In this document: positions 44,190-55,471 of the stretch, piece by piece
How positions within the stretch are numbered: the first letter of the stretch is position 1
Layout: every line of letters starts with the position of its first letter
Virus record (IMG/VR): IMGVR_UViG_3300037419_000842
Source of the DNA: a virus
DNA: 64,000 nt
Strand: one strand, 5' to 3'
The notes under the pieces: model-generated
Seen by the model: only the letters and a program-made list of their open reading frames with translations
What the model was told of the DNA's origin: nothing
Database searches by the model: none
Translations under genes and position numbers: made by a program

Positions 44190-44265
44190 TTTAAATTATC
44201 TACGAATAGTATACCATTTATTCTTCCACTTGTCAATAGCTTTGACCGATTTCTCAACAAAAATA

Positions 44266-44434
44266 AACTCGAAATCCAATAGGTTACAAAAATGGACCAA
44301 CTATAATAGATAACTTAATTATTTATTTTACTTTATTATATATAATATCAAATAATATAGTATAAGTATATATATAATAATAATTAATATATATTATATT
44401 TAGTCCATTTTTGTAACCTATTGGTTTTCGAGTT
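44266..44434. repeat. 35-bp inverted repeat flanking a ~100-bp almost pure A/T spacer (origin candidate)
   Basis: Arms 44266-44300 and 44400-44434 with 2 mismatches. Confidence 0.8.
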
Positions 44435-44761
44435 GGAATTAATTCAGAAAAAACCCCATTTGACAGACCGAGGCTACCACGCCCCGGCACTATCAAACGT
44501 GTCGAGTTGCTTTTTGTCCACTTTAGGAGAGGACTTTTTGATCTTACCATATATGATTGTCCAAGTAAAGATTGAATTTTCCCTTCTATTATATAAGGAA
44601 AATCCAATTCATGTCCGACAAAAAGTACACGCTTGATTTAAATTATTTGTCATAAGTTGTTGTGTCCATCTATATGATTGGAGTATAAGCCGATCAACAA
44701 GAACCACCAAACATCATTGTAGATAATTGTCGATCATCAACAATCGGGAAGGAGGTTCGAA

Positions 44762-44884
44762 ATGGCTGGAATTTCTTTAGCTTCTATAATAATAAATCTT
44801 GCTGGATGCGCTGTTGTCTCCGTTATGGCGAAACATAAAGCAGAAAAGGTTGTACTCATCAAGAGAGGCAGGGAGGTAAGGTAA
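44762..44884 (+). CDS. 40-aa membrane-anchored peptide MAGISLASIIINLAGCAVVSVMAKHKAEKVVLIKRGREVR
   Basis: RBS GGAGG; first ORF of the tubRZ operon; not in the ORF track. Confidence 0.55.
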   Translation: MAGISLASIIINLAGCAVVSVMAKHKAEKVVLIKRGREVR

Positions 44885-44899
44885 GTGGAAGGTGCCGCT

Positions 44900-45187
44900 A
44901 TGTATGAAAAATATTTTCAGCAAATAACAAACAACCTTGACGTTGATGATCTAATGATTCTTGACTCGTTAAAGGAAGATGACGCAAATGTCAAATTTAA
45001 AGCCATGAAGAACACTGTTTTATTTGAAAGGAGTGGTATGTCAGAGGCCAAATATAGAAAGACAATTGCTCGCTTATCTTCAATAAGTTTTATTGAAGCA
45101 AATACAACCAATAAAGAACATGCTCTATTCATAACAGAATACGGAATGATTGCACTTCAAATCATGATCAAGAAAGCTGAAGGGTAG
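44900..45187 (+). CDS. Winged-helix protein, TubR-like adaptor candidate
   Basis: 95 aa from the ATG at 44900; HTH-wing pattern (MSEAKYRKTIARL...FIE); directly upstream of tubZ. Confidence 0.5.
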   Translation: MYEKYFQQITNNLDVDDLMILDSLKEDDANVKFKAMKNTVLFERSGMSEAKYRKTIARLSSISFIEANTTNKEHALFITEYGMIALQIMIKKAEG

Positions 45188-45196
45188 GTTTACAAC

Positions 45197-46327
45197 ATGA
45201 ACATTGCCGTTATTGGATTAGGTGGCGCTGGAGGAAATATTGCAGATGAAGCGGCAAAACTTGGATTCACAACTGGAGCAATTAACTTTTCTCAAAAGGA
45301 TTTAGACGCACTTGACAATGTAGAATATAAACTGAAAATCATGGGTTCTGAAGGCGTTGGTCATAATAGAGAGGTTGCATTGTCTCTTATGCAAAAACAC
45401 TTTGACTCAATACACGAATTCCTTAATGTTAATTTTTCTACACCATCAATTGAATGCATCGTTTTCGCGGCTTCGACTAGTGGAGGTTCAGGCGCTGGAA
45501 TAATTTCAGTAGTAATAGATGTTGCAACTGAAATGTTCCCTGACAAAGTTGTCTGTGCGGCAGTAGTAATTCCTGATGAATTCGAAGCAACAAAATCTCA
45601 AATCAACTGTTCAGAAACCTTTGAAGACTTGTCCAAACTTGAGGTAGCAGTATTTCCAATTGATAATAACAAAGTAAGAAATTCTGGTGTTGGTAAAAAT
45701 AAAGTCTTCGAAATAACAAATAAGACGTTCGTTGAACTTCTTTCCAAAATTGTTTCTTATACTGATAAGCACTCCAAAAATGGTAACTTTGACAAACGAG
45801 ATTTGCTAACAATTCTAAAAACAAGGGGAGTAGCGATTATGGCAGAATCTGATATTGCTTCAATCAATAGCAAAATTTCATCGCAAGGAATTGCAGACTC
45901 CATTCATCAATCTTGGGATAAATCAATATTTGCTCCAGTAGAGTTTATTCAGGTGGTCAGAGCAGGAGTTATTTTCGATGCTCAAGAATATCTGATGGAA
46001 CATTTAAACCATGAAACTATATTTAAAAAATTCAAGGAAGGAATGCCCATTGATCTATTCGAAGGCAACTATCATGAAAGCAACGGTAAAGTTCTTACTA
46101 TTATATCTGGTCTTCCTTGGTGTAAGTCAAGACTTGCACAAGTCGATGAGCTTATTGAAAAAAGTAAGTCTAAAGTTGAGAGCGCACTTTCTGCTGAACA
46201 AGATACGTATCAATCCAAAGCGAAAGCAGGAGAGGTATCAGCGCTATTAAAAACTAGTTCCTCTGTTTCTCCACAAGAAAAACCAAAGCGTTCTGCAAGT
46301 GATATCTTTAGCAAATGGAAAAGGTAG
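45197..46327 (+). CDS. tubZ: Tubulin/FtsZ-family GTPase (TubZ-like)
   Basis: GLGGAGG, ASTSGGSGAG signature, PIDNN, T7 loop NFDKRD, basic C-terminal tail. Confidence 0.85.
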   Translation: MNIAVIGLGGAGGNIADEAAKLGFTTGAINFSQKDLDALDNVEYKLKIMGSEGVGHNREVALSLMQKHFDSIHEFLNVNFSTPSIECIVFAASTSGGSGAGIISVVIDVATEMFPDKVVCAAVVIPDEFEATKSQINCSETFEDLSKLEVAVFPIDNNKVRNSGVGKNKVFEITNKTFVELLSKIVSYTDKHSKNGNFDKRDLLTILKTRGVAIMAESDIASINSKISSQGIADSIHQSWDKSIFAPVEFIQVVRAGVIFDAQEYLMEHLNHETIFKKFKEGMPIDLFEGNYHESNGKVLTIISGLPWCKSRLAQVDELIEKSKSKVESALSAEQDTYQSKAKAGEVSALLKTSSSVSPQEKPKRSASDIFSKWKR

Positions 46328-46386: not shown

Positions 46387-46608
46387 ATGCGTGTTCTTAT
46401 TAATGGAAAAGATTTGACAGAGAGGGTTGAAGAGCTTGAACAACGTGAACAACACTACTTTGAAATTATCGACCTTGCCAAAAAAGCAATTATTATTATC
46501 ATTGGGGCTTTCATTATCTTGCATATCCCTGATTTACTTGACATCCCTACCTACGTTTTACATCATATTAGGCCGAATGTCGTTGACGGCTTTGCTCAGA
46601 TTCGCTAA
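46387..46608 (+). CDS. Small membrane protein
   Basis: RBS GGAGG before MRVLING; one TM segment. Confidence 0.55.
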   Translation: MRVLINGKDLTERVEELEQREQHYFEIIDLAKKAIIIIIGAFIILHIPDLLDIPTYVLHHIRPNVVDGFAQIR

Positions 46609-46669
46609 TCGCAAGACAAATCAAAAGACTGTTGTTCAATAAAATAAAATTAAAATTGGAGGAATCAAA

Positions 46670-46849
46670 ATGAGCAAACAAGAACAATTGGAAGCTCTGG
46701 TAAATGCTGTAATGGAAGGAGTAAAAAATGGGAAAATGCCATTGCTTACAGAAGAAGGTTTCACAAAGCTTGGAGAACTAATGAAGGAGAGCGGACGAGG
46801 ATTTTTGGTCGATTTCAGATCATTGAAGTCCGATGAAAATGTTGGATAA
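46670..46849 (+). CDS. 59-aa hypothetical protein
   Basis: RBS GGAGG; MSKQEQLEALVNAVMEG...; below the track cutoff. Confidence 0.55.
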   Translation: MSKQEQLEALVNAVMEGVKNGKMPLLTEEGFTKLGELMKESGRGFLVDFRSLKSDENVG

Positions 46850-46997
46850 TCTATGATTATCTATATTGATAACTGTAGATATACAAAAATCAGGATAGGA
46901 AACGTTGGTCTCCTATCCTGACAAATTTAAAAGAATATATCTCCTGTTACACAATAGTCAATTACAGAAACAACTCCATAAGCAATTACCCACCATA

Positions 46998-47192
46998 TCA
47001 TATAATATTTTCACCCTCCTGTTCTTCATTTTCTTGTTCCCATGTATTGGCACTACGAAGTCTTTTATTGTGATTAATAATGTCACCTAAAAATATGTTA
47101 GATATTGCCATAATTGAGTATAGTATACCGAAAAATCCGCTAATCATTAAAACAGTAATCAATAACGCTATGACAACACCACTAATAGTCAA
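46998..47192 (-). CDS. Small membrane protein, antisense to the operon
   Basis: 64 aa hydrophobic; followed by a 24-aa hydrophobic ORF at 46927-47001. Confidence 0.5.
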   Translation of the reverse strand: MTISGVVIALLITVLMISGFFGILYSIMAISNIFLGDIINHNKRLRSANTWEQENEEQEGENII

Positions 47193-47352
47193 TTGTCACC
47201 CATCCTTATCGGAAAATGTTACACCTGTTTAAATACCCATGTAAATTAACTTATTTACACAACGTACTACAAGTACACCCCCATATTCTTCGCGGATTTG
47301 ACACGTCCGAAAAATCTGCGAACTTAATACTATTAAGCGGGAGGACACAAAC

Positions 47353-47859
47353 ATGAAGTTCAAGGTACATCAAAATGGTTTTTGCGAAGAAGTGACGGCT
47401 ATTGAATTGTCAGTAATCAAAGGAGAAGTTGTTTCGGCAAGGTTCAACAACTCAGGAGTTAGTATTCGCAAGGATGATTTAAAAAATACGTGGAAATATT
47501 TGAAGGAAGAATTTTTTGGAGGAAAAAAGGGGTCTATAGGAGTAGTATTAAAAAGTGGAGGGGTTTTTTGGCCTATCTTTGTGGATATGATTTTCCCATG
47601 GTTCCTTGATATTGCTAAGGTATGGTGTTGTATCAAAATTTGTCAGGCGTTTCTTCAAGAGCGCAATGGTTCCGCTGGGTCAGATGGAAGAACAGGACTT
47701 CAAGCTTTGGTACATTACGGGAAATGGTTTCTTATCTTCGAATGTATACCGTTTTTAGTTGAATTAATTGATCAAATCGGTCACAAAATGGTTGATCAAC
47801 TTTCGCATCAACAAATAACTATTCCGACCTCTGGAAATGGGCCAAGGATTTCGTATTAA
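47353..47859 (+). CDS. Membrane protein with a two-TM, pilin (VirB2/TrbC)-like C-terminal half
   Basis: RBS GGAGG; TM-loop-TM pattern FWPIFVDMIFPW...GLQALVHYGKWFLIF. Confidence 0.4.
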   Translation: MKFKVHQNGFCEEVTAIELSVIKGEVVSARFNNSGVSIRKDDLKNTWKYLKEEFFGGKKGSIGVVLKSGGVFWPIFVDMIFPWFLDIAKVWCCIKICQAFLQERNGSAGSDGRTGLQALVHYGKWFLIFECIPFLVELIDQIGHKMVDQLSHQQITIPTSGNGPRISY

Positions 47860-47865
47860 AAAATG

Positions 47866-47890
47866 AGCTACTTACCAAAAGTAAGTAGCT
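47866..47890. terminator. Bidirectional terminator
   Basis: AGCTACTTAC-CAAAA-GTAAGTAGCT between converging genes. Confidence 0.65.
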
Positions 47891-47896
47891 AAAAAA

Positions 47897-48619
47897 TTAA
47901 ATTTTCTTATATTCTTTAATTACTTTAGAAACAGAAGCTTCACTTATGCAAAGTTCTTTGGCAATATTTGTTTGTTTCCAATTTTCATTATAAAGTTCAA
48001 TAATTTTGTCCATAATTTCTTTTGTAATTTTCATTCCTCTATCGCGCTTCTTGTAAGAGCCTAAATTTAAATGCTTCCATGTTTTTCCGCTAATTATAAG
48101 TTGTATGGTTGAAATTGATACTCCATATTCTTCACTGATGTCATACAATTTATAATTTCCTGTGCTATATTTTTTAAAAATTTCTACAACAAGATCATCT
48201 GTTAAAACTGCATTGAAATGGTCACCTCCCTTCATGCTCGTTCGTAATCCAGTATCTAATGCATGTTGTTGCTGTTCTTTTTCTGTTGCCCATTCTAAAT
48301 TATTGACAAAATTATTCTCCTTTATCCCGTCTTTATGATTAACTTGCGGCTTATTTTCTGGATTCTCAATAAAAGTCAAGGCGATAAGTCGATGAACCTG
48401 ATAAAAAGTCTTCTTTTTATCTTGAGTCAATGTTATTCTGACATACCCATCTTTATCAAACATGGTTTTCATAATCTTACTTTTAATCGTTCTTCCGCCG
48501 CTTCTGCTGTTCACCCATCGATCCAAACTCCGTACCCTACCGAGATTACTCACTTCATAATAATCTCCATACTCAACAATTCCTTTTAATGGTTTCCAAA
48601 TTTCCTGCATATTATTCAC
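47897..48619 (-). CDS. NUMOD4-HNH homing endonuclease
   Basis: EIWKPLKG...YEVSNLGRVRS; VHRLIALTFIENPENKPQVNHKDGIKENN...NLEW. Confidence 0.9.
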   Translation of the reverse strand: MNNMQEIWKPLKGIVEYGDYYEVSNLGRVRSLDRWVNSRSGGRTIKSKIMKTMFDKDGYVRITLTQDKKKTFYQVHRLIALTFIENPENKPQVNHKDGIKENNFVNNLEWATEKEQQQHALDTGLRTSMKGGDHFNAVLTDDLVVEIFKKYSTGNYKLYDISEEYGVSISTIQLIISGKTWKHLNLGSYKKRDRGMKITKEIMDKIIELYNENWKQTNIAKELCISEASVSKVIKEYKKI

Positions 48620-48704
48620 TCCACTTTCATATAATATAATAATGAGGTAATTTTATCATTTTTTCTTACATTTGTCAATACTTGGACAAAGAAGGTGAGT
48701 TAAA

Positions 48705-49487
48705 TTGATTGTTAAGATGAATGGTGTATTTGACCGTATACTGTTTCCAGTGACAAGCGGATTCAGAGAAATTGACTCAGCACATCCTCATAACCATGTA
48801 GGCGTGGATATTGCGATGCCGACTGGAACGGATGTTCTCTCTCCTGATAATGGAGTGATTGAACATATTGTTCATCAAGGGCACGAAGGTCTGGGCGAAG
48901 GAATTATAATGAAACTCCAAGACGGCAAAGAACTTACATTTGGACATCTATCACAAATCGATGTAAAAGAAGGAGACATAATTTCCATTGGTCAGAAAAT
49001 TGCAGACAGTGGAAATACAGGACATTCAACAGGAAGCCATTTACACATCTCTCTGCAAGACACAAGTGGACATTACATTAATCCTTCACACTATGCTGAT
49101 ATGATGGCCCAACTAGATCAGCCGTCTAAGTGGGCACAATTCAAACACTTCTTTTCGTCTCCTGTTGATGGATGGATGAAGGAGATTGATTCAATAAAGG
49201 ATTTCTTTAGACCATTCAGAGATTTCTTTGTATGGTGCGGAAGAATATCATCAGATGTAAAAGAACACGGATTTCTTCCATGGCTTGGAGATCAGATTTT
49301 ATATACTTTCAAATTAGGATTTGAAGGAATATTATATTTTGACGAGTTACTATTTTTATTTCCAGCAATAGCCGCTATGGTAGCATATTTTGTAGTTGGC
49401 AAGAATAAGTATACAAGGTGGATAGTTCCGCTCTGGTTCTTTTATTTTGTAGCTGAAATAATGAAGGCCCAATTGAGCATCAAATAA
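48705..49487 (+). CDS. M23 peptidase with C-terminal membrane segments
   Basis: HVGVD (HxxxD), FGHL, GNTGHSTGSHLH. Confidence 0.85.
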   Translation: MIVKMNGVFDRILFPVTSGFREIDSAHPHNHVGVDIAMPTGTDVLSPDNGVIEHIVHQGHEGLGEGIIMKLQDGKELTFGHLSQIDVKEGDIISIGQKIADSGNTGHSTGSHLHISLQDTSGHYINPSHYADMMAQLDQPSKWAQFKHFFSSPVDGWMKEIDSIKDFFRPFRDFFVWCGRISSDVKEHGFLPWLGDQILYTFKLGFEGILYFDELLFLFPAIAAMVAYFVVGKNKYTRWIVPLWFFYFVAEIMKAQLSIK

Positions 49488-49503
49488 AAGGAGAGTGTTA
49501 CAA

Positions 49504-49656
49504 ATGGAATTCTTGTTGCTTGCAAAAATCAATGCCGCTTTTCAAATTGCTGAGAAAATTGCATACGGAATAATTGGATTGGTTGCCGCTAAAATTGTAG
49601 TCAAATCAATTAAAGATTATAAAGACAGCGTAGAGGAAGATCGTTACTCTAAATGA
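49504..49656 (+). CDS. 50-aa membrane peptide
   Basis: RBS GGAG; MEFLLLAKINAAFQIAEKIAYGIIGLVAAKIVV... Confidence 0.55.
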   Translation: MEFLLLAKINAAFQIAEKIAYGIIGLVAAKIVVKSIKDYKDSVEEDRYSK

Positions 49657-49671
49657 AAGTAGGTGACATAA

Positions 49672-52464
49672 ATGAATTTTTCCCTTCCTTTTACAAGGAG
49701 CAAGGCTGAAACAATTAACTGGAATAAGTTTTTTAATATATATAGGGAACCAGTCATCACGTATTGCATTACTCCGAACAATTCCCCAATGAAAGACAAA
49801 TTCTCTTCTTCTAAAAGGAAGGGAGGACGCAGATTCGCTGAACATCCATTCTTGGATGATATGGAGGATTTCTATGAAGACTCTTTAACATCTGATACTC
49901 TTCTTAACACCATCACTGGGTTATTCTCCAAATTTTATTTACCTGAAAGAATACGGCTCACAAGAGATGGTGTAAAAGTAAAGCTTAATGATGTTGTGTC
50001 TTATAAGATCGTTTTTCAGAATGGTACAATGAAATTTTACCTCACAGTTCCTGAGAAATGGGCAAAGAATTTCACCAATGCTATAAAGAAAGATTGGGGA
50101 AATGTTGATATCAACCAAATTTCCACGGACGTTGTAGACCTTAACCCCAAGCAGTGTAGAGCCTCTAGCATCGTGCTCAGACATCACCACTGCCTTTCTA
50201 TCAAGCTCCAGAACCCAAGGGAGGGTGTTAGGGACACCCTGTACTCATCGCTGTCCTCGCTTGGTTCTACGCTGTCTAAAGACGACAAGCTGATAGTTGA
50301 CTTAAATATTAAGCCTTTGGCTAATAGCTGGAAAGATGAAGCAATAAAAGAATATAGAAAGGCCAAGAGGGGAAAAGCTGTTCCACGAAAGGAAACTAGC
50401 TTTGGAACTATCGTTCAGGTTGTACTTGGATTTGCTGATTCCATATTGGGAGAAGTTGAAAACTTCTTTATGGATTTATTTAGTTCAAGTGACGATAAAA
50501 AGGATGATGGAAAGCAGGAGGATAGGAAATATTCCTATTCAGATGAAAAGCTTCATGCAAATGCCAATGGATTTCAAGTTCAGATAAAAGCCATTGCTGA
50601 ATCTGACGATTCTAGAAAGACCAAACATATATTGAAAGGAGTGCAGAACTGCTTCCAACAATTAGATGGAGATAATAAATTCGTTGTTAAACAAATAAGA
50701 ACAAAACGCGGAATTAAGAATACTGTTATCTCTGTAGTTAATAATAAGCCTCTTCCAATGTACGGGAAAGACATTTTCTGCGAAAAGGAGATGAATCAAC
50801 TTTTCAAGATTCCAAGCAAACAGACATTGAAAGAATTTAAGAAAATTATAGATCAGGACAATTTTACTAGAACTGAAATTTCTGAGGACTTCTTTAAAGA
50901 AGAAGTTGGAGCACTCCCATTTGCAACAAGTCTTGATAAAGAGCCTAGAACACTAAATTTCCCTAATTACGAAAGAGAAGATTGGTCTGTCAAAGGAAGA
51001 AAGGTGGATAAAAAGACCCAGCTTGATGACAGGTGTACTGAGACTTTAGTATTTGGTAAAAAAGGCTCAGGAAAAACGGAGATAAGTGTCAATCAAATAC
51101 TTGAAACTTTTCTTGCTGGATTCAGCACATCAATTGAAGAGTGGAAAAGAAAGTCCAAAAGTGTATTTGCTTTTGATGTTGCTGATGGAGAAATATTGAC
51201 AAAGGTATGGAATCGCATACCTTCATGTCTTCGTCATAGAGTGATCATTCTCAATCATGCTGTTCCAGAACGACCAATACCAATCAACTTTTCTGAACTT
51301 GAAGAGTTTAACAGAGTGACATTAAAAGACCCTGATTACTCGTACAGACTTGCAGAAATAGAGGCTGATTTAATAACAGAAATTCTTAAAGTTGATCAAA
51401 GTATGTCAGTCGAACGATGGTTTAAGTACGCACTTCAATCTGTGCATTATGCATCTCCTGATTGGGGAATTCCAGAAGCTATTAAAATGCTTGTTGATGA
51501 CGATTTTCGTATCAATGAAGTAATGCCGTTAATATCTGACGATCCTGAAATGCTTCTTGAAATGGAAGCATATAATGAGATGAGCGCTAACAAAGAGAAT
51601 GGCACTGTTGTTACTACTATTCAAAATAGATTACAACAAGTTAAGGCAGAGCGTAAGCTGTGGGATTGCATTGCACAAAAACCACTGAGAGACGCAGAAG
51701 GAAAGGCCGCTATCAACTTCAGAAAGTGGGCAGATGGAGATATTGATGGAGCTTATTTGGTACTAGTATATATTCCAAAAGATGCAAGCCAAAAGTTTAG
51801 AAAATTCTTATTTGCCCATTATTTCATTAAAATTTGGAGTGTAGCAATATCACGCGAAAAGGGATTTGCAGGACGCGAGTACAGACCTGAAACATTAGTC
51901 GTTATTGATGAAATACATCAAATAGTAGACGTACCAGTTGTTGCACGAATATTTATTGACTTGTTTAAAGAAGTAAGAAAATACTCTTTCAGGTTCTGGT
52001 TTACTTTGCACGGATGGTCTTCTCTTGCAAAAGCTGGAAGGGGATTAGAAGGAGATTTAAAACAATCTATACTTGATAATGGTGCTAATCTAATCATGCT
52101 TAAAGGTGGAGAGGATGCTTTTGATTCTCTTTCAAATTTTATGGGAGACATGACTATGCAAGATTATAATAATCTAATGAATATGCAATGGACTGGAATC
52201 TTCTCTATTTGGTGGGGAGGACAACATGTATTCCAAGCAAAGATGTTGCCTGAATCTTCAAAAAGATTTAGGGGTTATGACAAGTGGGATTTGTACGATC
52301 TATCTAATTATATAAGTCCTTATTCCAGAAGTAGAGAAGAAGTTCGTAGAGATAACCTTAATCGTGTTGCAAACCTTCTTAAGAATTCCATTAAGAATGG
52401 TACTGAATCTGGAACTATGTCTGAAGGACAAAGTTGGGAAGATATAGATGAAGAAAATATTTAA
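49672..52464 (+). CDS. Large P-loop ATPase, VirD4/TraG/HerA-FtsK superfamily
   Basis: Walker A GKKGSGKT, Walker B VVIDEIHQ, EVRKY. Confidence 0.7.
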   Translation: MNFSLPFTRSKAETINWNKFFNIYREPVITYCITPNNSPMKDKFSSSKRKGGRRFAEHPFLDDMEDFYEDSLTSDTLLNTITGLFSKFYLPERIRLTRDGVKVKLNDVVSYKIVFQNGTMKFYLTVPEKWAKNFTNAIKKDWGNVDINQISTDVVDLNPKQCRASSIVLRHHHCLSIKLQNPREGVRDTLYSSLSSLGSTLSKDDKLIVDLNIKPLANSWKDEAIKEYRKAKRGKAVPRKETSFGTIVQVVLGFADSILGEVENFFMDLFSSSDDKKDDGKQEDRKYSYSDEKLHANANGFQVQIKAIAESDDSRKTKHILKGVQNCFQQLDGDNKFVVKQIRTKRGIKNTVISVVNNKPLPMYGKDIFCEKEMNQLFKIPSKQTLKEFKKIIDQDNFTRTEISEDFFKEEVGALPFATSLDKEPRTLNFPNYEREDWSVKGRKVDKKTQLDDRCTETLVFGKKGSGKTEISVNQILETFLAGFSTSIEEWKRKSKSVFAFDVADGEILTKVWNRIPSCLRHRVIILNHAVPERPIPINFSELEEFNRVTLKDPDYSYRLAEIEADLITEILKVDQSMSVERWFKYALQSVHYASPDWGIPEAIKMLVDDDFRINEVMPLISDDPEMLLEMEAYNEMSANKENGTVVTTIQNRLQQVKAERKLWDCIAQKPLRDAEGKAAINFRKWADGDIDGAYLVLVYIPKDASQKFRKFLFAHYFIKIWSVAISREKGFAGREYRPETLVVIDEIHQIVDVPVVARIFIDLFKEVRKYSFRFWFTLHGWSSLAKAGRGLEGDLKQSILDNGANLIMLKGGEDAFDSLSNFMGDMTMQDYNNLMNMQWTGIFSIWWGGQHVFQAKMLPESSKRFRGYDKWDLYDLSNYISPYSRSREEVRRDNLNRVANLLKNSIKNGTESGTMSEGQSWEDIDEENI

Positions 52465-52478
52465 GGACGTGAGACATA

Positions 52479-53024
52479 TTAAATATGCTTCCATCTCTGA
52501 TTTGTTACAATAAAGGAGATGTTTTGTATTGAAACATTAAACATAATACCTAATTCTTTATACTTGTATTCTCCGCTTTTATATAATTCTCTAATTTTTA
52601 AAACATCTTCTTCATTTAATTTTGATTTAGCATTATCCTTTCCTTTCATCTTAATTAAACCTGTTTCAATTGCATGGCCTATATTTTCTTTTCCTGTACT
52701 CCATTCTAAATTGTCAATATTATTATTGGACTTGTTTCCATCTTTATGATTAACTTCTGGACTATTTTTATCATTTACAATAAATGCAAGAGCAACAAGT
52801 CTATGAACATAATACATTCTTGATTTTCTATTTAACTTTAAATTTACAGAAAGATATCCGTTTTTCCCTTTCTTTGGTTTTAAGATTGAACCTTTTTTAT
52901 TTTGTATTCTATTGTTGGCTCCAATAAACACTCTATCTAAACTTCTTACATGACCAAAATTACTTATCTCATAATAGTCGCCATATTCGACAATACCTTT
53001 TAAACTTTTCCAAATTTCTGTCAT
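52479..53024 (-). CDS. NUMOD4-HNH homing endonuclease
   Basis: EIWKSLKG...YEISNFGHVRS; VHRLVALAF...VNHKDGNKSNN...NLEW. Confidence 0.9.
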   Translation of the reverse strand: MTEIWKSLKGIVEYGDYYEISNFGHVRSLDRVFIGANNRIQNKKGSILKPKKGKNGYLSVNLKLNRKSRMYYVHRLVALAFIVNDKNSPEVNHKDGNKSNNNIDNLEWSTGKENIGHAIETGLIKMKGKDNAKSKLNEEDVLKIRELYKSGEYKYKELGIMFNVSIQNISFIVTNQRWKHI

Positions 53025-53106
53025 ATTTTTTATTCACCGCCATATCATAATATATATCATACTAAATTATATCATTTTTTATTACATTTGTCAAGGAGGG
53101 TGCGAT

Positions 53107-54000
53107 ATGCGCTCAGGATGGTATGAAAGAATCGAGTATCCACGTATCAATGAAGATTGGGTTAAACTTCATTGCAAAAATATCACAAGAAGGGAGCGTG
53201 AATTGCTTCGAATTATTAATTACAGAAAACTCGTTCGCCGTGACCATCTCGAAATACTCTCTCCTGATTACAGAACTATATCTATGCGAACAAATGTTCT
53301 TAATCGTTCAATTAAAAAATTATTTGAGAAAAGCTGTATAGACAAAGTACATGAGGAACCAGAATTTATGACAGGAAATTTACCTGCAATTGTTGCAGTT
53401 GACAGAGCAGGAGCTATAATTTTAGGAACAAATTTCAAGCAAAGAATTAAACATATCAAACGAATCATTAACAACGAGACAAAAATTTTTAGAGAGATAC
53501 CACCAAACTATCCACATTTGCATGGAATCAATAAGCTAGAAGTTGATACAACGCTATGGGCATTAGAAAGGGGCTATAAATTCAAATGGTATCTTGAACA
53601 AAATAACAAGAAAACCTTTTCTTATAATGGAGAAGATATTGGCCTGATACCTGATGTCTTCTTAATTCTCAACACAAATCCACGAATATTTTTATTTTTT
53701 CTAGAATACGATACTGGAACAGAGGATAACAGGAGGGCTAAAACATTTCCTACATTACTTGAAAAAATGGAGAAATACCAAAAATACAAAGCTATTGGAG
53801 CATGGAAAGATGAATGGTGGGCAAAGAAAATAAATGCTGGATTCCCATTAGTATTATTTATAACAGATGACGACAGGCGAATTGACTTCATAAAAGAAAG
53901 GGGGAGTAAAATAGGTTTGCATGTTGATGCTGTTTATTCTTCTAATTATATAAAAAAATTGGATAGTCTAACGACTATCCACAATACTCCTTCTCTGTAA
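53107..54000 (+). CDS. Replication-relaxation (Replic_Relax) family protein, putative relaxase
   Basis: N-terminal wHTH; HLHGIN, IPDVF, FLEYDTGTED, FPLVLFIT; downstream of the ATPase. Confidence 0.7.
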   Translation: MRSGWYERIEYPRINEDWVKLHCKNITRRERELLRIINYRKLVRRDHLEILSPDYRTISMRTNVLNRSIKKLFEKSCIDKVHEEPEFMTGNLPAIVAVDRAGAIILGTNFKQRIKHIKRIINNETKIFREIPPNYPHLHGINKLEVDTTLWALERGYKFKWYLEQNNKKTFSYNGEDIGLIPDVFLILNTNPRIFLFFLEYDTGTEDNRRAKTFPTLLEKMEKYQKYKAIGAWKDEWWAKKINAGFPLVLFITDDDRRIDFIKERGSKIGLHVDAVYSSNYIKKLDSLTTIHNTPSL

Positions 54001-54055: not shown

Positions 54056-54111
54056 CTCAAGGTTAGCAGGATGTGGGAGACATTGCTGTTTAAGCTTTTG
54101 CTAACCTTGAG
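54056..54111. repeat. 13-bp perfect inverted repeat
   Basis: CTCAAGGTTAGCA...TGCTAACCTTGAG with a 30-nt spacer. Confidence 0.75.
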
Positions 54112-54173: not shown

Positions 54174-54202
54174 TTGACATGTCTTCCATTATGTCGTATA
54201 AT
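54174..54202 (+). promoter_or_regulatory. sigmaA-type promoter upstream of the recombinase-like gene
   Basis: TTGACA-17-TATAAT. Confidence 0.7.
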
Positions 54203-54230: not shown

Positions 54231-54437
54231 CCAATGATTATTGATGGAGTAAAATGGGAGATAGAGATTTGCGATCATCCTTGGAATTTACCAAAAGAAG
54301 GAAGAGAAAATGTATTCTATATAGAGAGCGGATATATGGGATCAAGTTCAACAACGTATGTGTGGAGAGAACTTCAAGGTAAATTTATGTATATGCCAGT
54401 AATATTCAGAGGAGGAAAATGCCAATGCAACCACTAG
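54231..54437 (+). CDS. Hypothetical protein (start re-called)
   Basis: MIIDGVKWEIE downstream of the promoter and RBS GGGAG. Confidence 0.45.
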   Translation, partial: PMIIDGVKWEIEICDHPWNLPKEGRENVFYIESGYMGSSSTTYVWRELQGKFMYMPVIFRGGKCQCNH

Positions 54438-55471
54438 TAAAAAACAATGTAGTAATGCTACACAATGACTCTGTATTGGCTCATATCAGCAAGTTCCTAG
54501 ATAGATTGTCTGTTGACAGTGCAAGCACAAGCGTAGAGTATAAGCGTGATATTCAGAAGTTCTTCAAACTTATGCTAGGAAAGGAGCTTAATGAGCTTGA
54601 GGTTAGAGACTTAGATATTAAGAAGATTGACATTGAAGGATATCAAACGTTTCTTCTGGATTACGGATATAAGGCATCTTCCATCAATAGAATGATTGCT
54701 TCCGTCAAGAGTCTGTATAATTCTTTCGAAGAGAATGGTTTTAAATACAAAGACGATAACGGAGACAATATTTACATTAAATCCGCTCCACTAAATGTAG
54801 ATAAGCTCAGAACAAATGATAGTGATAGCTATGGAATGATTGAACATGAAGAAATGAAAGATATGATTCGTCGTGCTAAGTATATGCCAAATGGTGTAGA
54901 AAAATCTTTATTTCTTGAGTTTGCAAGTGTAACTAGTTTTCGTCTTGAAGCTATAACAAACCTTGATTGGAATGACTTTAGAAAAGAGAGTGATACATGG
55001 GTAGTCAAAACATTGGATGACAAAGGCAAAGTTCATGAAAAATCTATACGTACTGACCTGTATGAAAGGATGCTTGAAACAAAGAAAGATGATAAAGTGT
55101 TTCATATGACTTCACGTACTATTGAACGTGTTATTGAGACTCTTGTCAAAGATATGAACATTGATCCTGAACGAAATATTAAGTTCCATAGCATTAAGAA
55201 ATATGGTATCATGGAAGTTTGGATGGCTACTGGCGGCGACATCATAAAGACAGCGGAACAAGGAAATCACAGTTCTTTCGAAACAACTAAGAAATATTAC
55301 ATGATGTTTAAAAAGAATTATGCATCCATGCCAAGCTTATTAATTGGTCAGGAAGTTGATATTAATCCAATTAAGGAGATGAGTAAAGATGAATTAATCG
55401 CATTGATTGAAAGTTGTGATAGAGAGTTACAATTCTCTTTGTTAAATAAAATTAAGAAGACGGGCATATAA
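54419..55471 (+). CDS. Tyrosine recombinase-fold protein
   Basis: SAM-like N-domain; SFRLEA, KG, FHSIKK, GNH...TTKKYY. Confidence 0.8.
   Translation: MPMQPLVKNNVVMLHNDSVLAHISKFLDRLSVDSASTSVEYKRDIQKFFKLMLGKELNELEVRDLDIKKIDIEGYQTFLLDYGYKASSINRMIASVKSLYNSFEENGFKYKDDNGDNIYIKSAPLNVDKLRTNDSDSYGMIEHEEMKDMIRRAKYMPNGVEKSLFLEFASVTSFRLEAITNLDWNDFRKESDTWVVKTLDDKGKVHEKSIRTDLYERMLETKKDDKVFHMTSRTIERVIETLVKDMNIDPERNIKFHSIKKYGIMEVWMATGGDIIKTAEQGNHSSFETTKKYYMMFKKNYASMPSLLIGQEVDINPIKEMSKDELIALIESCDRELQFSLLNKIKKTGI

Follow-up and report, generated by a model that had tools for sequence, protein, structure and literature searches.

We analyzed a 64,000-nt stretch of DNA (the window) from the IMG/VR virus record IMGVR_UViG_3300037419_000842 and found that it carries a compact set of DNA-transfer-like genes built around a 930-amino acid (aa) ATPase and a Replic_Relax nuclease. 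The explanation that we prefer, and to which we would give about an even chance, is that these genes are a reduced conjugative DNA-processing and transfer module, derived from a plasmid and carried by a plasmid prophage, which a helper could mobilize or which could be a minimal exporter. By its gene content the set is reduced (a hydrolase, two small membrane proteins, one ATPase and a relaxase) and is not a complete Gram-positive type IV secretion system (T4SS). The gene string has already been published; what we add here is the version linked to TubZ, together with an analysis of the fold and the gene context of the ATPase.

The module and its phage

The window spans bases 87687-151686 of one contig of 169,219 bp, for which CheckV gives a completeness estimate of 100%. 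The first 44 kb of the window, on the - strand, hold open reading frames (ORFs) sized like tail and head genes, including a 1989-aa ORF that is tape-measure-sized (going by size alone), and a + strand block starts at 44.7 kb. The genes of the module are as follows, with coordinates in the window.

47353-47859, + strand: 168-aa membrane protein (phrog_30989, 1.2e-34), pilin-like in topology only
48705-49487, + strand: M23 metallo-endopeptidase (PF01551, 3.4e-22) with a C-terminal membrane hairpin
49504-49656, + strand: 50-aa single-helix peptide (50-53 aa by start choice, 49495 or 49504) with a conserved DYKxSVE tail
49672-52464, + strand: 930-aa ATPase of an uncatalogued family, with a VirB4-like N-domain and a VirB4/VirD4/HerA-type ATPase domain
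53107-54000, + strand: Replic_Relax / MOBC-type PD-(D/E)XK nuclease (PF13814, 1.5e-11; phrog_9381, 1.9e-55)

An earlier reading of the window, made from the letters alone (the sequence-only reading), had named these five genes and the TubZ gene upstream of them, and ORF and profile checks found all six in place. It had also described the run as having a single orientation, and this we could not uphold: two NUMOD4/HNH_3 genes on the - strand (47897-48619 and 52479-53024) interrupt it.

Proteins with about 51% identity to the ATPase occur in 64 records of Bacillus phages (140-170 kb), among them Tsamsa, Thrax1-5, Kirov, Izhevsk, FADO, PJN02 and vB_BcoS-136. On account of this protein similarity we place the phage, as a divergent member, among the giant temperate siphophages to which one paper gave the name Tyroviruses. 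It is probably able to persist as a plasmid prophage. A megablast of the module against phage records gave no match. Genomes like PJN02 have been deposited under B. amyloliquefaciens and B. subtilis as circular plasmids of 162-166 kb, which fits the plasmid-prophage reading of PMC7685451 and PMC10454425.

Sequence and fold of the ATPase

The ATPase has a Walker A motif (GKKGSGKT) and a Walker B motif (VVIDE), yet it matches nothing in Pfam-A, NCBIfam or the PDB sequences, whether it is searched as a single sequence or as a profile of 33 homologues. Ten diverse relatives likewise have no Pfam match. There was no match to PF03135 (CagE_TrbE_VirB) or PF12846 (AAA_10) in hmmscan or in whole-genome scans, and the coupling-protein models PF02534, PF12696 and PF10412 were unmatched in the search of all Pfam-A (PF02534 and PF12696 were also absent from the genome scans). 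No hydrophobic segment was found in the 930 residues, so the protein has no N-terminal transmembrane anchor of the kind seen in VirD4, TraG and TrwB. The sole precomputed label for the family is a weak or faint match to PF26449 (DUF8128).

The family is nevertheless large and well conserved. A profile search of 1.84 billion cluster representatives returned 439 relatives (about 440 clusters at 50% identity), mostly 750-950 aa long and with both halves conserved, and a profile scan at E <= 1e-10 detected the family in 63 of 401 sampled Bacilli genomes. All of the catalytic motifs are intact and about 190 positions are invariant in the alignment of 33 homologues, which argues for selection on function.

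We compared AlphaFold2 models of the whole ATPase (predicted local distance difference test score, pLDDT, 78.9) and of the separate N-domain (pLDDT 84.6) with known structures. The C-domain (residues 402-868) matched the VirB4 of T. pseudethanolicus (4ag5) with Z 23.2 and a root-mean-square deviation (rmsd) of 3.5 Å over 351 residues, and further fold matches were TrwB (Z 22.1), DndH-C (21.4) and HerA (19-20). The scores for TrwB and VirB4 are effectively tied, and the model has a helical insert at residues 541-667, between Walker A and Walker B. By its predicted fold the C-domain belongs to the VirB4/VirD4/HerA clade, an assignment that applies to the clade and does not single out one type of member within it. 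The N-domain is more distinctive. It matched the N-domain of the R388 VirB4 protein TrwK with Z 15.9 and rmsd 3.7 Å over 245 residues, while the next match had Z 9.4 and all others 7 or below, and the top 11 Foldseek matches were all TrwK. In its modeled architecture the ATPase is VirB4-like and is no classical VirD4. The statement in the sequence-only reading that VirB4 is missing therefore has to be divided: a canonical AAA_10 VirB4 is indeed absent from the phage genome, but the ATPase itself has the VirB4 two-domain fold.

Gene context of the relatives

We met the gene string again in over 60 phage records and also on metagenome contigs, with ATPase identities of 46-63%, so as far as gene order can tell, the arrangement is not chance. 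The conserved order is RecD2 (on the other strand), a partition pair, a two-helix protein of 155-188 aa, M23, a peptide of about 50 aa, the ATPase, Replic_Relax and an Xer-like gene, and it is present in Thrax5, PJN02, one Halobacillus contig and three metagenome contigs (L021, L022 and L023). In all phage relatives that we examined, and in most plasmid and integrated relatives with Replic_Relax, the gene for the ATPase overlaps or abuts that for the relaxase. This pairing covers phages, 18-32-kb plasmids and integrated elements, and the module is also found on small plasmids and integrated elements without phage genes.

The sequence-only reading had presented the module as a phage operon that goes with tubZ. 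In the gene neighborhoods that we compared, its partner is mostly ParM rather than TubZ. Only the two closest relatives (L021 and L022, 56-61% ATPase identity) have TubZ, while the others have ParM/ALP_N, so the partition cassette has been exchanged while the module stayed. We take this, like the PJN02-type plasmid records and the absence of the region from integrated Tyrovirus-like prophages (PMC9703825), as a sign that the module goes with the plasmid lifestyle. Because most relatives have ParM at that position, we regard the association between module and TubZ as loose on the basis of these comparisons.

Some relatives sit in operons that look conjugative. On two unrelated contigs (L040, 7553-16307; L054, 952-11380) one strand carries the family ATPase, then Replic_Relax, a group of three or four small membrane proteins, and finally a canonical AAA_10 VirB4; the VirB4 of L040 matches PF12846 at 4.7e-48, and its family ATPase aligns with the phage family over 684 columns that cover both domains (probability 96.7%). 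On another contig (G147:C50) the ATPase-Replic_Relax pair and an AAA_10 VirB4 are 16 kb apart. Profile scans found no VirD4 and no TcpA/FtsK-type coupling protein on the L040, L054 and G147 contigs. Since these relatives adjoin Replic_Relax and coexist with a canonical VirB4, with no other coupling protein on the contig, the family by its gene context takes the coupling-protein slot in conjugation operons, beside a MOBC relaxase. One distant member of the family passes the Pfam VirD4 model PF02534 (28.4 bits).

A further Bacilli operon (L057) also has the family ATPase, Replic_Relax, small membrane proteins and an AAA_10 VirB4. Judged by their gene content, the L040, L054 and L057 operons look like an undescribed type of coupling protein for MOBC elements.

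The 149-kb C. botulinum plasmid pCLD carries an 800-aa, full-length relative of the ATPase (L004, 7841-10641; probability 99.9%, E 8e-34), and a gene for a TrbC/VirB2 pilin (28.5 bits) overlaps the start of the gene for this relative. pCLD is in the same set of group I C. botulinum plasmids as pCLJ, which was reported to be conjugative (PMC2884020). At the other extreme, small plasmids and islands of Thermoactinomycetaceae have just small membrane proteins, the ATPase, Replic_Relax and a 3-helix protein. Elements of the Alicyclobacillus type have M23 with the ATPase, so M23 adjoins the ATPase outside phages too. The small membrane proteins of the plasmid relatives gave a single weak hint of T4SS_pilin in Pfam (E 0.012). 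The named hosts in which we saw the family all form endospores: Bacillus, Priestia, Halobacillus, Laceyella, Thermoactinomyces, Shimazuella, Alicyclobacillus, Clostridium and Thermincola.

Separately, we noticed two T4SS clusters (L037, 8921-17823; L038, 1500-10545) with a DUF87/HerA-type protein of 867-884 aa that has two membrane helices. Its gene adjoins those for an M23-containing hydrolase, a 7-helix VirB6-like protein and an AAA_10 VirB4, and its ATPase domain is distantly related to the phage ATPase family (E about 1e-34).

The relaxase

The classification of the nuclease in the sequence-only reading was confirmed: its PF13814 score is 45.2 bits (45.9 when the whole genome was scanned), above the curated cut-off of 25.3. 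In CONJscan this relaxase family goes by the name MOBC (PMC5357655, PMC12857230). Across 10 Replic_Relax sequences of 22-57% identity, H137, E145, P182-D183 and E200-Y-D202 are invariant. The third motif thus reads E-Y-D, with no lysine there, and the N-terminal region is predicted to be helix-turn-helix-like. The tested member of MOBC is TraX of pAD1 (Francia 2013, reviewed in PMC12857230), a PD-(D/E)XK enzyme with an N-terminal winged helix. Its binding site consists of five direct repeats, which lie 70-120 bp away from the nick, and the enzyme shows no covalent DNA adduct (PMC12857230).

Membrane proteins and M23 peptidase

The 168-aa protein has hydrophobic stretches at about 60-100 and 116-148 with a Gly/Arg/Asp-rich loop between them, and its N-terminal part is variable (from alignment and hydropathy). 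It has no Pfam match, including to the pilin models PF04956 and PF18895, a PDB profile search was empty, and hhalign found no similarity to the TrbC/VirB2 protein of pCLD (probability 0.2%). Because all of these comparisons gave nothing, we use "pilin-like" for its topology alone.

In the M23 protein the HxxxD and HxH motifs are intact, and hydrophobic helices at about 208-232 and 239-255 flank a KNKYTR loop. It matches a SpoIIQ model at E 8.5e-5 and ShyA at 7e-16, but the M23 fold is generic. In the PJN02 lineage the M23 gene is just 120 aa (L002, 8419-8781; L024, 6419-6781) and apparently lacks the C-terminal membrane part. The gene for the 50-aa peptide is always immediately 5' of the ATPase gene in the alignment of relatives, and a homologue search with the peptide alone gave 2 matches.

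What the module may do

In the reading that we prefer, the MOBC-type nuclease would bind and nick an origin of transfer (oriT), and the 930-aa hexamer-type ATPase would partner the relaxase in the role of a coupling protein. The 50-aa peptide, the two-helix 168-aa protein or both would hold the ATPase at the membrane, and the membrane-anchored M23 endopeptidase would open the thick wall locally. TubRZ (ParMR in most relatives) and the adjoining Xer-like recombinase would provide partition and dimer resolution of the replicon. Whole-genome scans of the phage found no FtsK_SpoIIIE, T4SS-DNA_transf, TraG-D_C, CagE_TrbE_VirB or AAA_10 domain, and no protein of at least 150 aa in the genome has at least 5 hydrophobic helices, so there is no VirB6-like polytopic protein. 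Because the phage is without a canonical VirB4, a VirB6-like channel protein and VirB8, transfer of the plasmid form would have to borrow the mating channel of a conjugative element in the same cell, as with CloDF13 MobB/MobC or the streptococcal integrative mobilizable elements (IMEs), or else use an export route of unusually few parts. The sequence-only reading had taken relaxase, coupling-type ATPase and wall hydrolase as the core of a Gram-positive conjugation system. Conjugative ancestry is supported by PF13814 and by the context of the relatives, but the ATPase is VirB4-like, there is no standard VirD4, and the set is incomplete.

Several observations weigh against a transfer module. With no VirB6-like channel and no recognizable VirB8 in the phage genome, autonomous conjugation is doubtful. 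The ATPase has no VirD4 or VirB4 Pfam match and no membrane helix to anchor it, and the M23 protein has no signal peptide, which leaves its export unexplained. In this phage and four relatives we looked around the relaxase gene and ahead of the 168-aa gene for an oriT-like array or a conserved hairpin, and found none that they share. The overlap of the ATPase and relaxase genes is broken in the present phage, where two homing endonucleases have entered the module. On pCLD no other VirB4, VirD4 or TcpA domain was detected, and because the family member is the sole VirB4-like ATPase detected there, the role of the family, to judge from gene content, may differ between elements. PHROGs also annotates phrog_9381 as "replication initiation by nicking".

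That last label, like the Pfam family name (replication-relaxation), points to a role in replication and maintenance, in which Replic_Relax would nick the plasmid prophage for the start of replication or for resolution and the ATPase would be a segregation or resolution motor, with no transfer between cells. Plasmid replication is included among the functions of PF13814 in PMC3424549, the module lies between partition genes and an Xer-like recombinase, and PMC7685451 and PMC10454425 treat the module as a feature of the plasmid prophage. We still find this unlikely, as it leaves unexplained the M23 wall hydrolase, the membrane peptides, the VirB4-type N-domain and the relatives that head T4SS operons, and related phages have separate initiators adjoining (RepA_N-type in L023, "replication initiator" in Thrax5 and PJN02). 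It is also improbable, in our judgment, that the ATPase, nuclease, M23 and small membrane proteins are a self-sufficient minimal exporter, which would send out DNA without a full T4SS for uptake by, for example, natural competence. No channel-forming protein was identified for such an exporter, and MOB-suite types the small plasmids of the family as non-mobilizable. There is a precedent in a membrane-associated FtsK/HerA-type ATPase that donates DNA with nucleases and without a T4SS (PMC5365140), but this protein, TdtA, is no close relative. What speaks for an exporter is that no other T4SS ATPase or coupling gene was found in the elements examined (the phage, Thrax5, and the Laceyella and Alicyclobacillus plasmids), that the phage, Thrax5, Laceyella, Alicyclobacillus and Thermoactinomyces elements pair the ATPase with small membrane proteins, and that no further VirB4-like ATPase was found on pCLD beside the family member.

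A part in the lytic cycle or in entry (pulling in the 169-kb genome, or superinfection exclusion), or a decaying relic, would suit the position of the module 6-15 kb from the genome end in the Thrax5 and PJN02 records as deposited, the two homing endonucleases and the shortened M23 of the PJN02 lineage. The same module on plasmids and integrated elements without virion genes, and motifs that are all intact and strongly conserved, make this very unlikely. We give least credence to the forespore proposal of the sequence-only reading, in which the machine would carry phage DNA over the septum of a sporulating cell, or hold it there, and the spore would thereby entrap the prophage; we found no support for it. 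Every named host of the ATPase family forms endospores, but this pattern may just be phylogeny. Apart from the generic M23 fold, no part of the module is like SpoIIIE or the SpoIIIA-SpoIIQ channel, there is no FtsK_SpoIIIE domain, relatives are in ordinary conjugation operons and on non-phage plasmids and integrated elements, and the link to TubZ is loose.

Partition genes, insertions and other neighboring features

The remaining features around the module are listed here.

44762-44884, + strand: ORF for a hydrophobic peptide of 40 aa, which opens the tub unit and has a strong ribosome-binding site
44885-45187, + strand: 100-aa protein at the TubR position, assigned by position only
45197-46327, + strand: TubZ tubulin-like partition GTPase (PF00091, 1.1e-15)
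46387-46608, + strand: 73-aa ORF with one hydrophobic helix, alternative start 46315, an uncertain gene
46670-46849, + strand: 59-aa soluble protein with a good ribosome-binding site
46889-46922: hairpin with a 15-bp stem, terminator-like on the - strand, probable boundary between the tub unit and the transfer-like unit
47897-48619, - strand: NUMOD4/HNH_3 homing endonuclease, an insertion (PF07463, 1.9e-15; PF13392, 1.4e-6)
52479-53024, - strand: second NUMOD4/HNH_3 homing endonuclease, between the ATPase and relaxase genes (PF07463, 1.2e-13; PF13392, 9e-9)
54056-54111: 13-nt inverted repeat without mismatches, its arms 30 nt apart, in the gap from the relaxase gene to the recombinase promoter
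54419-55471, + strand: Xer-like tyrosine recombinase (PF00589, 2.8e-10; PF02899, 1.5e-7) with its own consensus promoter at 54174-54202

The best PDB matches of TubZ are the TubZ structures 4xcq and 3v3t (E about 7e-16). The 100-aa protein before it has no match in Pfam, PHROG or NCBIfam, and L021 and L022 have an ORF of 94-95 aa at the matching position before TubZ. After TubZ, the 73-aa ORF has no homologue that we could see in L021 or L022, and the 59-aa protein shares the motif LVNAVME with an 86-aa ORF that follows TubZ in L021. We did not find an iterated centromere (a tubC repeat array) near the tub unit; there is only an inverted repeat upstream. This repeat, in the gap between the divergent recD2 and tub genes (44250-44450), has 63-nt arms (83% complementary) around a nearly pure A/T core of 75 nt, and from its sequence it is a candidate origin or centromere.

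Because the hairpin at 46889-46922 probably closes the tub unit, the transfer-like genes would be a unit of their own, separate from the tub operon. Just beyond the hairpin, the sequence-only reading had counted several small membrane proteins on the + strand. The 168-aa protein and the 50-aa peptide are real, but the ORFs at 46905-47356 are doubtful, being without ribosome-binding sites and not conserved (three small + strand ORFs in the module region are doubtful). On the - strand, a 64-aa ORF (46998-47192) encodes one membrane helix and an acidic tail, and it has a promoter-like site upstream (47245-47216) and its own terminator with a 15-bp stem (46922-46889). From these sequence features it is likelier to be a gene than the + strand ORFs at 46905-47356.

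Both HNH genes are absent from the closest relatives L021 and L022, where the ATPase and relaxase genes overlap, and for this reason we take both to be recent insertions on comparative grounds. Each has a perfect TTGACA-17-TATAAT promoter (48678-48650 and 53094-53066, - strand). The spacers of both promoters contain a genome-wide 16-bp motif, WRATRWAAGAWWAAAT. The motif occurs 9 times in the window, where 1.1 would be expected; every match is on the - strand, and the + strand of the module has none. The inverted repeat at 54056-54111 is not conserved in relatives by a crude k-mer test; its sequence and position would suit a terminator, a site for the recombinase or a piece of an oriT.

Implications

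If the preferred reading is true, giant Bacillus phages would have two routes of spread, by virions and, for the plasmid prophage, by conjugation or mobilization. Phage-plasmids and mobilizable plasmids would be less sharply distinct, and host reach would be wider than the range of the phage receptor. A bolder version, which we think quite unlikely, is that the ATPase is an uncatalogued conjugative type, a coupling protein on a VirB4 body, and makes a self-sufficient exporter with the MOBC nuclease, M23 and the two small membrane proteins, perhaps with uptake by competence. A tailed phage would then spread its plasmid form from cell to cell without virions or a helper. There is also a practical side. 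Plasmids with this ATPase family are now typed as non-mobilizable by MOB-suite, and if the family is recognized as a partner of MOBC relaxases, mobility calls would change for plasmids of Bacillota that form spores, those of the C. botulinum group I family among them.

Comparison with known systems

MobB and MobC of CloDF13 are a mobilization module that consists of a coupling protein and a MOBC relaxase. The streptococcal IME_Class_8 has VirD4, Rel_PF13814 and a serine integrase, and more generally MOBC relaxases pair with coupling proteins in mobilizable elements (PMC5357655). Like the phage module, both CloDF13 and IME_Class_8 have a compact order of ATPase, MOBC relaxase and recombinase and no mating-channel genes of their own (for CloDF13 the comparison is based partly on a table in PMC12857230). 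In contrast to both, the ATPase of the phage is no VirD4, has no membrane helices and no Pfam match, and has a VirB4-like N-domain. The phage recombinase is a tyrosine enzyme, unlike the serine integrase of IME_Class_8, and the module, here on a tailed phage, also includes M23 and small membrane proteins.

The VirB4 ATPases (R388 TrwK, 7o42 and 8rtd; 4ag5) have the same two domains in the same order as the phage ATPase, and no membrane helices. The phage ATPase differs in being unmatched by PF03135 and PF12846, and its relatives coexist with a canonical VirB4 and adjoin a relaxase gene. With TraX of pAD1 the nuclease has the PF13814-type PD-(D/E)XK core in common, and the winged helix of TraX corresponds to the predicted helix-turn-helix-like region, a likeness by description. 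The third motif of the phage protein is E-Y-D and not (D/E)xK, and bind and nic sites were not found in the phage in the repeat and hairpin search near the relaxase gene. Transjugation by TdtA of the Thermus thermophilus element ICETh1 (PMC5365140) is similar in that an ATPase of the FtsK/HerA superfamily works with nucleases on a mobile element without a full T4SS. TdtA, however, pairs with NurA and a type IIG enzyme, and has no MOBC relaxase and no M23 partner; the likeness is not one of close sequence relation.

The closest known counterpart is gp11-gp18 of the Tyrovirus/Tsamsa-like phages (Thrax1-5, Tsamsa, Kirov, Izhevsk and PJN02; PMC9703825, PMC7685451, PMC10454425), which is the same string at an ATPase identity of about 51%, with a membrane protein of about 155 aa, a 50-aa peptide and an ATPase of about 930 aa next to ParM. 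In these papers the ATPase is called a "type IV secretion protein" or is unnamed. According to PMC9703825, gp11-18 of Thrax, which include ParM, gp17 (the "type IV secretion protein") and gp18 (replication-relaxation), seem to come from a plasmid, and integrated Tyrovirus-like prophages lack the region. Compared with that region, the present phage has TubRZ in place of ParM/ParG and two inserted HNH genes.

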